Sequence record: MN850609.1
Origin: Escherichia phage dhaeg
Strand: one strand, 5' to 3'
DNA length: 64,000 bases
Shown: piece by piece, positions 29,944-33,061 of the stretch
Position numbering within the stretch: position 1 is the first letter of the stretch
Layout of the letters: every line of letters starts with the position of its first letter
Notes under the pieces: generated by a model
Databases searched by the model: none
What the model saw: the letters and a program-made list of their open reading frames with translations, nothing else
Told to the model about the DNA's origin: nothing
Position numbers and translations under genes: made by a program

Positions 29944-30398
29944 TGAAAACCGAAGATTTTGCTCAAGGTCTATACGTTGCTGCAAAATTCTCTGAATTGA
30001 CTTTAGATGCGCTGGAAAATCTTCAGCGCACTTTAAAGGTTCCTAATCCAGTTCCTCGTGAAAAATTCCATTCTACAATCTGCTATTCAAGAGTCAACGT
30101 TCCATACACTGTTGCATCCGGAAGTTTCGAAGTTGCTTCGTCAGGACATCTTGAAGTGTGGAAACATGGTGATTCTCCTGTCTTGGTACTGGTTCTCGAT
30201 TCAGAGTATCTTAAATGCCGCCATCAGTATGCTCGTACCTTAGGTGCTACGCACGATTTCGATGATTACACCCCTCATATCACATTGTCTTATAATGTAG
30301 GACCTCTTACCTTTAGTGGAGATGTCCAGATTCCTGTCGTTTTAGATAGAGAATATAAAGAACCCTTGAAGCTCGACTGGGCCGAGGATTTAAAGTGA
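29943..30398 (+). CDS. 57B: 2H phosphoesterase, gp57B / Acb1-like anti-CBASS phosphodiesterase
   Basis: 151 aa; two H-x-T-x motifs (HSTI, HITL) typical of the 2H fold; position after 57A as in T4. Confidence 0.8.
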
Positions 30399-30604
30399 AA
30401 TCATACAAAGAATTCTTAACAGAAGCAATGGAGTCAGCCTCTTCGGTGGCAATAGAGGTTTCTTGTACTCCTGAAGAATTTAAAGAAAGCCTGAAAGGTA
30501 TAAATTGGCTTTCGGGAGAGTTATCTAATGGGGTTGCCTACTTCTTTGGCCCGCAATCAGATATAGATAGCTGGGTCTCTGAAAATTCTTCATGGCTAAA
30601 ATAA
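30395..30604 (+). CDS. internal-protein-like small protein with capsid-targeting-sequence-like N-terminus
   Basis: GTG start overlapping 57B stop with GAGGA RBS; N-terminus [11 protein letters not shown] resembles the T4 IP targeting sequence with an L-x-E cleavage motif. Confidence 0.5.
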
Positions 30605-30613
30605 TTTAAAAAT

Positions 30614-30644
30614 GTTTTACAAAGGGCTTTAGTGATGATACTAT
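30614..30644 (+). promoter_or_regulatory. sigma70-type early promoter cassette
   Basis: gTTTACA ... 17 bp ... TACTAT, followed by conserved gacctatcaa-like leader. Confidence 0.55.
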
Positions 30645-30682
30645 AGGCCTATCAAAAACAAACTAACCAAATGGAAATCAAA

Positions 30683-30961
30683 ATGAAAACTTATCAAGAA
30701 TTTAGTAAATCCCAAAAAGTGGCTCCTATCACTGAAGCCAGTGTTATGAGTGAAGTTATAGCCCTAAACAAAGGCCGTGAAGGTAAACCGGTTATCGGTC
30801 TTAATGGTGATGAACTTAAAGGTACTGTTTATCTGGGCGACGGTTACCATGCTAAAAAAGACGGTGGGAGCATTGTTATTTCCCCGGCTCAAGAATCTTC
30901 TGTAATGAAAACCGTTTACATCGCCACCAAGCACTTTGATATTTTGAAAAAAGCACTTTAA
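30683..30961 (+). CDS. internal-protein-like protein with capsid-targeting-sequence-like N-terminus
   Basis: N-terminus MKTYQEF... with ITE-A cleavage-like site; start chosen at second ATG. Confidence 0.55.
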   Translation: MKTYQEFSKSQKVAPITEASVMSEVIALNKGREGKPVIGLNGDELKGTVYLGDGYHAKKDGGSIVISPAQESSVMKTVYIATKHFDILKKAL

Positions 30962-30963
30962 AG

Positions 30964-30995
30964 TTATTTACAACGGGCTCTAGTGATGATACTAT
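30964..30995 (+). promoter_or_regulatory. sigma70-type early promoter cassette
   Basis: TTTACA-17-TACTAT followed by conserved ...cctatcaaaacaaatgagtga..ggagaataaaATG leader. Confidence 0.55.
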
Positions 30996-31031
30996 AGCCC
31001 TATCAAAACAAATGAGTGATTGGAGAATAAA

Positions 31032-31217
31032 ATGAAACGTTGTGAATTAATTAGAAATGTTACTGCACTGGCCGCCGTTACTGCTTTTGGCTTTAGTATG
31101 TTTGCAGGATTCATGTTGGATTTGCTTACAACTTCCGAGAATATAATCTCTTTAGTAGTGGCATTCTTAATTGGTTCAATCTCTTTCGTTATGGATAAAA
31201 TCTCTAAAGGTGAGTAA
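31032..31217 (+). CDS. small membrane protein
   Basis: 61 aa, two hydrophobic helices; start after ggagaataaa RBS. Confidence 0.5.
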   Translation: MKRCELIRNVTALAAVTAFGFSMFAGFMLDLLTTSENIISLVVAFLIGSISFVMDKISKGE

Positions 31218-31218
31218 A

Positions 31219-31599
31219 ATGTATAAAGTGTATGCGGATTATCAAGCAAATCCATCTGAAAAACCAGATTGCCAAATTGGGTGGGCGCATGACACCCTGC
31301 TTGAAGCGGTAAATGAAGCACAGAAATTAGGATATAGTTATGTAGATATTGTTCAACCGGGTGGAACAGTTATTACTCTTGAAGAATTCAAGAATATCAA
31401 AACAAACTTTTTGCTCTTTGCCGGTGATAACTATTATCCTCGTGGCGGTTATGCTGACTTAATCGCAAAGGCCGCGACTGAAGATGAACTGCGCGATATC
31501 ATTAAAGAAAACGAGAATAAGCCTTGTTACGGTTCCAATCGTTTTGACTGGTGGCAGATTGTCAATGCCAATACCCACACTATTGTAGACGAGGGTTAA
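31219..31599 (+). CDS. hypothetical protein
   Basis: 126 aa ORF, ATG after gtgagtaaa RBS-like sequence; tightly packed. Confidence 0.5.
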   Translation: MYKVYADYQANPSEKPDCQIGWAHDTLLEAVNEAQKLGYSYVDIVQPGGTVITLEEFKNIKTNFLLFAGDNYYPRGGYADLIAKAATEDELRDIIKENENKPCYGSNRFDWWQIVNANTHTIVDEG

Positions 31600-31884
31600 A
31601 TGTTATACGTTAAGGTTACTAATCCAGAGAATGGCTATAAATCCGATCAGGTTGCAGCCGAGTTGTTGATTCGAAATTACGGCAAAGATGCCGTGCTTGA
31701 TGTTCAACAGGTTAATATTGGCCGTAGTTCAAGCGATGTTAAACTCAAAGTTAACAGCCATCGCTATAATTCTGTTAACTTTACTTTTTATACCGCAACT
31801 GAAAATGGATTGGTCGAATACGACATCTTTAAAAACCCTTTGAAGATTGCTTCTATTAAACTTGACTATATTAATATGCTTTAA
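31600..31884 (+). CDS. hypothetical protein
   Basis: 94 aa ORF starting at the stop of the preceding gene. Confidence 0.5.
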   Translation: MLYVKVTNPENGYKSDQVAAELLIRNYGKDAVLDVQQVNIGRSSSDVKLKVNSHRYNSVNFTFYTATENGLVEYDIFKNPLKIASIKLDYINML

Positions 31885-31969
31885 GAATTATGTGATATTA
31901 TTACTCTATCATTAATACCCTCTATTACCAAAGGTTCTTCCCTCAAAGAGCCTTTCATAATAGAATTAA

Positions 31970-32043
31970 GGCCCTGTAGCTGGACGGTCAAGCGAGCGAC
32001 TCATAATCGCTGGATGGTGGTTCGATTCCACCCAGGGCCACCA
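31970..32043 (+). tRNA. tRNA with CAU anticodon (Met or lysidine-type Ile)
   Basis: Hand-folded cloverleaf: acceptor GGCCCUG/CAGGGCC, anticodon stem AGCGA/UCGCU with loop CUCAUAA, T-arm GGUGG-UUCGAUU-CCACC, encoded CCA. Confidence 0.75.
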
Positions 32044-32047
32044 ATTT

Positions 32048-32122
32048 GGATGTGTAGCTCAGTGGTAGAGCAGTTGACTGTTAATCAATTGGTCCATGGT
32101 TCGAATCCATGCATGTCCGCCA
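32048..32122 (+). tRNA. tRNA-Asn (GUU)
   Basis: Acceptor GGAUGUG/CAUGUCC (two G-U pairs), D-arm GCUC-AGUGGUA-GAGC, anticodon loop CUGUUAA, T-arm CAUGG-UUCGAAU-CCAUG, encoded CCA. Confidence 0.75.
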
Positions 32123-32126
32123 AATA

Positions 32127-32202
32127 CGAGGCATAGCTCAGAAGGAAGAGCAAGGACCTTCTAAGTCCTGGGTCGTAGGTTCGATCCCTACTGTCTCGAC
32201 CA
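32127..32202 (+). tRNA. tRNA-Arg (UCU)
   Basis: Acceptor CGAGGCA/UGUCUCG, D-arm GCUC-AGAAGGAA-GAGC, anticodon stem AGGAC/GUCCU with loop CUUCUAA, T-arm GUAGG-UUCGAUC-CCUAC, encoded CCA. Confidence 0.8.
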
Positions 32203-32372
32203 AACAAGAAACCGGGTCGCTACCGGTAAGTCGTCGGACTGAAGTTCCCTGAATAAGACCCGACTTTAAGGCGTACATGAGTTCCTCTTAAAGTCCCTTA
32301 TCTCACAGCTGAAACGGCGCACCGAACACTTGCCTAGCAGGTGGAACCCCGACAAGGTTACCCTAGGTTAAA
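32203..32372 (+). ncRNA. structured non-coding RNA region downstream of tRNA-Arg (candidate small stable RNA)
   Basis: About 170 nt without a convincing ORF between the last tRNA and a terminator; stems such as CGGGUC...GACCCG; T4 has small stable RNAs in this position. Confidence 0.35.
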
Positions 32373-32400
32373 GGCCCTTCCGAAAGGTTGGGCCTTTTTT
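32373..32400 (+). terminator. rho-independent terminator ending the tRNA/RNA transcription unit
   Basis: GGCCCuuCC-GAAA-GGuuGGGCC followed by TTTTTT. Confidence 0.6.
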
Positions 32401-32401
32401 G

Positions 32402-32409
32402 TATAAATA
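32402..32409 (+). promoter_or_regulatory. late promoter (TATAAATA)
   Basis: Exact TATAAATA 28 nt upstream of the ATG at 32438. Confidence 0.6.
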
Positions 32410-32437
32410 GATAAGTTAATTAACACAGGAAACAATA

Positions 32438-33061
32438 ATGAAAACTTACAATGAATTTTTGAACGAAAGCGTTCTGACTGAAGCCAGCGTGCGCATGACT
32501 AAAGATATGTGGCAAGCTGCTTATGATAAAATTTCCGGGACTAAAACCACTACCGAGTTCTTTAAAAACGTTTATGATATGTATGGTTTTGATACTAGTA
32601 ACCAGAAAGAATATTACAAAGCTTCCAAAGCTTTTAAAGATATCGTAGCCGGTGGCGCTACTAAACCTGCTAAACCAGCTAAAGCTCCTGTTGCTAAACC
32701 TGCAGCCCCAACCAAAGTTGCACCACCTAAACCTGCGGCAGCACCTAAAGCAGAGCCTGTAAAAGAAGCTCCTAAACCTAAAATCAAGTTCGACACCAGC
32801 ACTATTGTTAAAAAATATAACCAACTGGCTTCTTTGGTTTCTGAAATAGAATCCGAAACTAAACACCTTGTTCGTGAATTCAATGTTCTTCGTAACGGTC
32901 AACACATTAACAACCTGGACACACCAGACCTTTATCGTCTCTATCTGACGGTTGAAGGCCTTAAGTACACCCAGCCTATGCGCGAAGAAATTGACAACAA
33001 ACTTCGTCAAGCACGCCGACTGGCCGGTGACGCAGCTCAGTTCGAAAAGACTCGTAAATAA
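32438..33061 (+). CDS. internal-protein-like protein with capsid-targeting-sequence-like N-terminus and Pro/Ala/Lys-rich linker
   Basis: 207 aa; N-terminus MKTYNEFLNES...LTEA; low-complexity KPAKPAKAPVAKPAAPTKVAPPKPAAAPKAEP linker; late promoter upstream. Confidence 0.6.
   Translation: MKTYNEFLNESVLTEASVRMTKDMWQAAYDKISGTKTTTEFFKNVYDMYGFDTSNQKEYYKASKAFKDIVAGGATKPAKPAKAPVAKPAAPTKVAPPKPAAAPKAEPVKEAPKPKIKFDTSTIVKKYNQLASLVSEIESETKHLVREFNVLRNGQHINNLDTPDLYRLYLTVEGLKYTQPMREEIDNKLRQARRLAGDAAQFEKTRK

Follow-up and report, generated by a model that had tools for sequence, protein, structure and literature searches.

The 64-kb stretch of phage DNA analyzed here (the window) carries three open reading frames (ORFs), which we call ORF-A, ORF-B, and ORF-C and which probably encode T4-type internal proteins; we put the probability of this reading at about 75%. 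The window matches Escherichia phage dhabil (MN850621.1) with 100% identity as its reverse complement, and dhabil is a JS98-like Dhakavirus of the Tevenvirinae with a genome of 165.6 kb. Statements about the whole genome refer to that 165.6-kb record, covered by the window together with loci L010-L012, while comparisons within Dhakavirus use loci from phages JS98 (L002) and IME08 (L003). An earlier interpretation of this DNA, made without database searches and called here the sequence-only reading, had placed three candidate genes at positions 30395, 30683, and 32438. All three are found on the plus strand at exactly these starts, with the following features (a slash marks a predicted cut).

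30395..30604, plus strand: ORF-A, GTG start, 69 amino acids, GAGGA Shine-Dalgarno sequence 6 nt upstream; propeptide of 10 residues, then /A
30683..30961, plus strand: ORF-B, ATG start, 92 amino acids, N-terminus MKTYQEFSKSQKVAPITEA; propeptide MKTYQEFSKSQKVAPITE/A
32438..33061, plus strand: ORF-C, ATG start, 207 amino acids, N-terminus MKTYNEFLNESVLTEA; propeptide MKTYNEFLNE/SVLTE/A

The three proteins share an N-terminal signal that is unique in the genome. Each begins M-K-[ST]-Y-x-E-F and continues to L/I-x-E-A within 18 residues. When the window is translated in six frames, the motif K[ST][YF]x[ED]F turns up three times, in every case directly after the start codon of one of these ORFs; across 300 order-2 Markov simulations it appeared on average 0.31 times anywhere and 0 times at the starts of ORFs of at least 40 amino acids. 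A relaxed form of the motif, scanned against the 3761 start-codon ORFs of at least 40 amino acids in the whole dhabil genome, again matched only these three. When aligned to MKTYQEFIAE, the beginning of T4 IPII and IPIII, ORF-B and ORF-C agree at 7 of 10 residues each and ORF-A at 6 of 10; T4 IPI itself begins MKTFKEFTST. Predicted sites for the head protease gp21 are LTE/A at residue 10 of ORF-A, ITE/A at residue 18 of ORF-B, and LNE/S at residue 10 plus LTE/A at residue 15 of ORF-C. Two of these tripeptides, ITE and LTE, also serve as the processing sites of T4 Alt (PMC5694885). The [LI]xE pattern is confined to the first 18 residues in all three dhabil proteins, and the processing site is conserved in both the ORF-A and the ORF-C families. 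The proposal that these N-termini resemble the T4 capsid targeting sequence with its L-x-E site is thus upheld, both by the uniqueness of the motif and by the presence of a site in each ORF. Avoidance of [LI]xE in the mature bodies was also considered as evidence of exposure to the protease; it was dropped, the joint shuffle probability for the three dhabil proteins being only 0.06.

The enzyme expected to remove these putative propeptides is gp21, which is encoded within the window.

61..696, minus strand: gp21 prohead core serine protease, Pfam PF03420 Peptidase_S77 at 1.1e-103

The gp21 gene adjoins those of gp68, gp67 (PF17634), and the portal gp20, all within the window, and the scaffold gp22 is annotated in the dhabil record. 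The phage therefore encodes both a T4-type prohead protease and a scaffolding core. Given an IPI orthologue, a gp21 gene, and a shared propeptide, the original identification of T4-type internal proteins holds at the sequence level.

ORF-B belongs to a known family. Its full-length alignment to T4 IPI, over 94 positions, gives 57% identity, and the Pfam family PF11634 (IPI_T4) matches residues 19-92 at profile positions 1-75 of 76 (E = 1.4e-26; 92.8 bits, with a cut-off of 25). ORF-B also matches PDB entry 2JUB, the mature protein IPI*, at 8.1e-23. Because query residue 20 aligns with residue 2 of that chain, the predicted ITE/A cut reproduces the experimentally known mature N-terminus. The predicted mature protein has 74 amino acids and an isoelectric point (pI) of 9.0. 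The family is phrog_4363, an internal virion protein, and the GenBank label is "internal head protein." By these sequence comparisons ORF-B is an orthologue of T4 IPI, and because of that orthology it is most likely a blocker of a GmrSD-type modification-dependent (type IV) restriction nuclease. The nuclease that IPI* blocks is GmrS/GmrD (PMC3012670), and the RB69 homologue of IPI protects arabinosylated DNA from GmrSD (PMC6024577). The specificity of T4 IPI is narrow: it fails to inhibit a GmrSD variant that shares 90% identity with its target (PMC3012670), and such narrowness is also described in PMC12373910. Neither ORF-A nor ORF-C matched PF11634 at E values up to 1. The label Ip9 was rejected for ORF-B; IME08 Ip9 falls in phrog_7673 and ORF-B in phrog_4363, and the two are different proteins.

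ORF-C is larger and more elaborate. Its predicted mature form has 192 amino acids, a mass of 21.6 kDa, a pI of 9.7, and a net charge of +13; by comparison, T4 IPIII has a mass of 20.5 kDa and a pI of 9.65. AlphaFold models confident helical domains at residues ∼20-72 and 121-205, and between them a disordered linker (residues 73-116) whose 44 residues include 13 Ala, 12 Pro, and 10 Lys. This composition and this model agree with the sequence-only description of a Pro/Ala/Lys-rich linker followed by a distinct C-terminal domain. The late promoter that had been assigned to the 207-amino-acid ORF is likewise present, and a hairpin follows the gene.

32402..32409, plus strand: T4-type late-promoter motif TATAAATA, 28 nt upstream of the ORF-C ATG
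33064..33085, scored on the minus strand: GC-rich terminator-like hairpin AAAGGAGAC-TTCG-GTCTCCTTT, directly after the ORF-C stop; the palindrome is identical on both strands

For comparison of the ORF-C family we used loci L013-L017, from phages Marfa, PG7, IME523, phiA85, and Kosakonia 305. The late motif TATAAATA is kept in JS98, PG7, and phiA85 and reads CATAAATA or GATAAATA in Marfa, IME523, and Kosakonia 305; in the homologue loci, the motif or its one-base variant lies 35-46 nt upstream of the gene. Of the three candidates, ORF-C is the one with a conserved late promoter. No late motif directly precedes ORF-A or ORF-B, and ORF-B has an early-type promoter.

The ORF-C family is phrog_2280, in which no function is assigned, and all 143 phage records with a homologue (143/143) call it a "hypothetical protein." An exhaustive HMMER search of ORF-C against 1.84 billion representative proteins returned 14 clusters of one architecture, none of them linked to a known family. 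The shared layout consists of a targeting-like N-terminus, one or more [LIV]xE sites, a conserved body start xERMTKxKWQ, a helical N-terminal domain, the linker, and a helical C-terminal domain. The targeting-like N-terminus is present in every member examined except the most distant, P0032, and 17 of 18 members have one or two [LIV]xE sites within their first 18 residues (LNE/A in phiA85), ahead of the conserved body. In the loci examined, which represent Dhakavirus, Karamvirus, Kanagawavirus, Marfavirus, and Jiaodavirus, the gene follows the tRNA cluster; Mosigvirus-like matches lie outside these loci. The ratio of nonsynonymous to synonymous substitution rates (dN/dS) is 0.04-0.09 among Dhakaviruses and 0.2-0.5 between genera. 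At least two unrelated C-terminal domains occur, one of the dhabil type and one shared by IME523 and phiA85. Since these sit on a kept N-terminal domain and linker, they indicate domain swapping within the family. The linker DNA (32652-32751) consists of imperfect 9-nt periodic repeats (CTAAACCTG...), and homologues differ in linker length, which suggests that the linker grows and shrinks through slippage or recombination.

The possibility that ORF-C is a divergent IPIII was rejected. BLASTP aligned only residues 1-25, and hhalign of the two family alignments joined only columns 1-25. A search of the dhabil genome for IPII or IPIII homologues found none; Yersinia phage fHe-Yen9-01 carries both IPIII and an ORF-C relative. 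The sequence-only reading had called for a comparison with the IPI, IPII, and IPIII families, and the outcome is split: ORF-B is a member of the IPI family, but ORF-A and ORF-C share with IPII and IPIII only the propeptide. In the literature, too, internal-protein families are described as sharing the propeptide only (PMC3012670, PMC12373910). Just past the cut site, RMTKDMW in ORF-C (residues 16-25, 32483-32512) resembles GINKDEW in T4 IPIII (residues 11-24), and it is because of this stretch that the profile alignment reaches column 25. The likeness may be due to chance, or the stretch may be part of an extended core-binding segment. Sequence and profile searches of PDB, Pfam, and NCBIfam with ORF-A and ORF-C found nothing, and the ORF-C model matched no PDB structure (best E 1.4) and only its own family in BFVD.

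ORF-A is small and acidic, with a predicted mature form of 59 amino acids (6.45 kDa, pI 4.1). A tblastn search located it in 28 phage records. In the loci compared, five of which were fetched beyond those of dhabil and JS98, it lies directly 3′ of gene 57B with overlapping stop and start codons; the fetched loci come from five genera. In dhabil, the TGA stop of 57B overlaps the ORF-A GTG. Gene 57B forms the conserved left border of the internal-protein locus. The features around the three ORFs are as follows.

29943..30398, plus strand: 57B/Acb1 (2H phosphoesterase, anti-CBASS), Pfam PF23474 at 6.8e-59, phrog_755
30598..30657, plus strand: early-promoter cassette, copy 1 (60 bp; TTTACA-17-TACTAT, upstream TG), in front of ORF-B
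30949..31008, plus strand: early-promoter cassette, copy 2, 83% identical to copy 1, to the right of ORF-B and upstream of trna.4
31970-32202: genes for tRNA-Met, tRNA-Asn, and tRNA-Arg
33103-33162: early-promoter cassette, copy 3, 67% identical to copy 1, before e.8

The gene order is that of T4: gp2, homing endonuclease, gp3, gp1, 57A, 57B, the internal-protein slot, trna.4, trna.3, trna.2, the three tRNA genes, a small-RNA region, ORF-C, e.8, and e.6. The gene at 29943-30398 carries the label 57B in the JS98 and IME08 records. The candidates had been described as a cluster beside an Acb1-type gene. 57B/Acb1 does adjoin ORF-A, but the three genes are not contiguous, ORF-B being separated from ORF-C by trna.4, trna.3, trna.2, the three tRNA genes, and an rnaD-like RNA region. 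This last region, from tRNA-Arg to the ORF-C late promoter (32203-32395), is an unannotated small-RNA region whose first ∼60 nt are nearly identical to T4 rnaD (species 2 RNA) and whose 3′ part resembles the start of T4 rnaC. An Rfam search of the spacer between the tRNAs and ORF-C gave only the three tRNAs above threshold and no family over 32203-32395. Two further differences from JS98 occur nearby. The homing endonuclease gene of dhabil (27636-28286) occupies the gap between gp2 and gp3, and JS98 has none at that position. In trna.3 (31219-31599, compared with L002 3822-4223 in JS98), the N-terminal halves are unrelated and the C-terminal halves nearly identical, which places a mosaic junction between the two phages within this gene.

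The slot after ORF-A differs among Dhakaviruses that are ∼95% identical in the region, giving three sets of genes that bear a capsid targeting sequence: the IPI-like gene in dhabil; an unrelated ORF of 97 amino acids (MKTYQEFIKES...) in JS98; and an Ip8-like ORF of 74 amino acids together with Ip9 in IME08. The JS98 ORF (L002 3274-3567) is without annotation in the public record, as are the Ip8-like ORF of IME08 (L003 3284-3508) and the IME08 orthologue of ORF-A (2996-3205). The sequence-only reading had noted that internal-protein loci of T-even phages are hypervariable. That description fits the IPI-like slot, which differs between dhabil, JS98, and IME08, but not ORF-A and ORF-C, which are conserved. 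The promoter upstream of T4 ipI has the same layout as the cassette at ORF-B (TTTACA-17-TACTAT), and a 37-nt repeat family with 73% identity surrounds the start codons of both ORF-B and ORF-C. The cassettes resemble recombination linkers of the promoter-cassette kind, through which modular shuffling has been proposed to occur in T4-type phages (PMC2839356).

In T4, internal proteins dock onto the core, are cut by gp21 after Glu, are retained with the DNA, and are injected (PMC5694885, PMC3012670). We infer a similar path of packaging, cleavage, and injection for the three dhabil proteins. The N-terminal capsid targeting sequence would dock each of them onto the scaffolding core during prohead assembly, and gp21 would cut after the Glu of L/I-x-E, at LTE-10 in ORF-A, at ITE-18 in ORF-B, and at LNE-10 and/or LTE-15 in ORF-C. 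The mature proteins would stay with the packaged DNA and then be injected with it; because they would enter the cell with the DNA, they could act before any phage gene expression, as injected internal proteins do. Among internal-protein candidates of the dhabil genome, which has no IPII or IPIII, ORF-C alone is large and basic, and it would most likely fill the role of T4 IPIII, with its Lys/Pro/Ala linker on DNA and its two helical domains inhibiting, once injected, a host nuclease that acts early. ORF-A would be a small acidic injected protein that is translationally coupled to 57B/Acb1. T4 Ip1, Ip2, and Ip3 are inhibitors of GmrSD, each of a different variant (PMC12373910; also PMC9391042), and Bas37_0260, which is encoded at the ipI locus and bears the signal sequence, inhibits McrBC (bioRxiv 10.1101/2025.11.20.689424). 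The earlier idea that proteins of this kind act against restriction is thus established for T4 Ip1-3 and Bas37_0260; for ORF-A and ORF-C we infer an anti-defence activity from the shared delivery signal.

Three other explanations bear on these assignments, two of them on ORF-A. One holds that ORF-A is not a gene at all and that a chance open frame occupies the spacer between 57B and ipI, as its absence from the dhabil, JS98, and IME08 annotations, its GTG start, and its length of only 69 amino acids might suggest. This explanation is effectively refuted. ORF-A matches phrog_23867 over its full length (1.8e-42), is annotated as a coding sequence in EcS1, Gravdalen, CF1, and Merlin, has a dN/dS of 0.06-0.17, is preceded by a Shine-Dalgarno sequence, starts with ATG in IME08, and yields a confident AlphaFold model (predicted local distance difference test [pLDDT] 83). 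ORF-A is a real gene under purifying selection. The shared N-termini might, however, be recombination scars of cassette exchange, with at least ORF-A remaining unpackaged as an ordinary early protein of the cytoplasm. The 37-nt repeat at the starts of ORF-B and ORF-C, the 60-bp cassettes that flank ORF-B and are of the kind proposed to drive modular shuffling (PMC2839356), and the acidic character of ORF-A together with its cotranslation with the early gene 57B all fit such an origin. We nevertheless regard it as very unlikely. In the ORF-A family the motif survives synonymous saturation: where dS exceeds 2 or is not computable, residues change while the pattern holds (MKSYKEF, MKTFKDF, MK-FTDF, MKTFLEF, MKSFNEF), and the junction E10-A11-M12-E13 is invariant. 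The ORF-C family likewise keeps its motif across genera. Since the motif persists at synonymous saturation, selection acts on the peptide and not on the DNA. Moreover, the T4 capsid targeting sequence alone is enough to bring foreign proteins into the head (Mullaney and Black 1996, cited by PMC3012670 and PMC5694885).

The serious alternative concerns ORF-C, which may be mainly structural, an H1-like basic DNA-condensing or core component that neutralizes DNA charge in packaging, and not an anti-defence effector. Its conservation would then stem from a function in assembling the head or packing DNA, and the position kept after the tRNA cluster in at least six genera, with the low dN/dS reported above, is consistent with this, as are the late promoter, the 44-residue linker and net charge of +13, and its place as the sole basic candidate for an internal protein, IPII and IPIII being absent from the genome. 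Lysines of T4 internal proteins contact DNA phosphates (PMC3012670). On the other hand, T4 IPIII is equally abundant and basic, yet it acts as a specific inhibitor of GmrSD, and the phage can do without it in laboratory hosts (PMC12373910, PMC9391042). The example of IPIII also means that structural and inhibitory roles are not mutually exclusive. Two well-folded helical domains, the C-terminal one swapped between lineages, fit a target-binding module better than plain charge neutralization. We therefore consider a mainly structural ORF-C possible but the less probable explanation. The reading of all three ORFs as packaged, injected internal proteins also has observations weighing against it. 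ORF-A and ORF-C are stable under purifying selection and not hypervariable, a pattern unlike that usually left by arms-race effectors. Neither matches a fold or family that points to a target. ORF-A is acidic, whereas T4 IPI*, IPII, and IPIII are basic, and it has no promoter of its own, being coupled to 57B. The mature bodies of 18 ORF-C family members contain 16 [LI]xE tripeptides with 20.3 expected; because they do not avoid the tripeptide, the motif alone is no predictor of cleavage. Finally, our literature search turned up neither virion proteomics nor N-terminal mapping, whether for a Dhakavirus or for the ORF-A and ORF-C families, and no usable virion proteomics for Yersinia phage fHe-Yen9-01 or related phages.

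The likely chemistry of dhabil DNA gives the ORF-C family a further context. Outside the window, at dhabil 60535-64709 (L011 10535-14709), lie a thymidylate-synthase-like gene and an NTP_transferase+APH gene homologous to RB69p052. Genes of the RB69p052 type have been linked to cytosine arabinosylation, a pathway reportedly conserved in Dhakaviruses (PMC8056088, PMC13326640), which suggests that dhabil DNA carries arabinosylated rather than glucosylated cytosine. Homologues of the NTP_transferase+APH gene occur in 367 phage records, many of them with ORF-C relatives. When the partial match lists were compared, many phages carried both genes, with incomplete overlap; T4 has no ORF-C gene at the equivalent position. 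A more far-reaching proposal, speculative and rather improbable in full, is that ORF-C is an overlooked, widely conserved modular internal protein that replaces IPII and IPIII in arabinosyl-cytosine T4-like enterobacterial phages and blocks nucleases recognizing that modification, and that ORF-A hits a non-GmrSD target. The modules of ORF-C may in that case be the targeting sequence, a helical N-terminal domain, an H1-like Lys/Pro/Ala DNA-binding linker, and an exchangeable helical C-terminal domain.

All internal proteins tested so far (T4 Ip1, Ip2, and Ip3 and Bas37_0260) are specific inhibitors of type IV restriction. ORF-A and ORF-C add two families with the same delivery signal, which public records list simply as hypothetical proteins, and these are cheap, well-defined candidates in the search for anti-defence functions and their host targets. 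Their interest is greatest for phages whose DNA is probably arabinosylated and not glucosylated. The comparison also exposes gaps in annotation, namely ORF-A in dhabil, JS98, and IME08 and the further signal-bearing ORFs of JS98 and IME08.

It is useful to set these proteins against known systems. A polymorphic internal-protein locus beside 57B in T-even phages was reportedly described by Repoila et al. in 1994, with proteins from Ip4 onward, such as Ip8 and Ip9. The locus type has thus been known since 1994 and ORF-B is a known protein; the families of ORF-A and ORF-C are the new candidates. ORF-B resembles T4 IPI in its equal length, its ITE/A site, its place downstream of 57B, and its early-promoter layout, and differs from it in 43% of residues. 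With T4 IPIII (PF26861, phrog_5341) and IPII (phrog_7857), ORF-A and ORF-C share the capsid targeting sequence and L/I-x-E/A, and ORF-C also resembles IPIII in mature size, basic charge, and, probably, late expression. However, neither BLASTP nor profile-profile comparison shows homology past ∼25 residues, the PHROG families differ, ORF-C follows the tRNA/rnaD region instead of lying beside gene e, and ORF-A is acidic. To our knowledge, the P1 proteins DarA, DarB, and Hdf and T4 Alt have no sequence or fold relationship to the dhabil proteins, and their targeting signals differ. The likeness in that case is one of strategy, with head-loaded proteins delivered together with the DNA and acting before phage gene expression (PMC12810830, PMC5694885). 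A further parallel is provided by the polymorphic cassettes of T-even phages and Bas37_0260, in which the locus between 57B and trna.4 and the signal sequence are the same and nonhomologous bodies are exchanged between close relatives (bioRxiv 10.1101/2025.11.20.689424). From these cassettes, the dhabil proteins differ in that ORF-A is a fixed member in several genera, and in that neither ORF-A nor ORF-C is annotated as an internal protein in PHROG.

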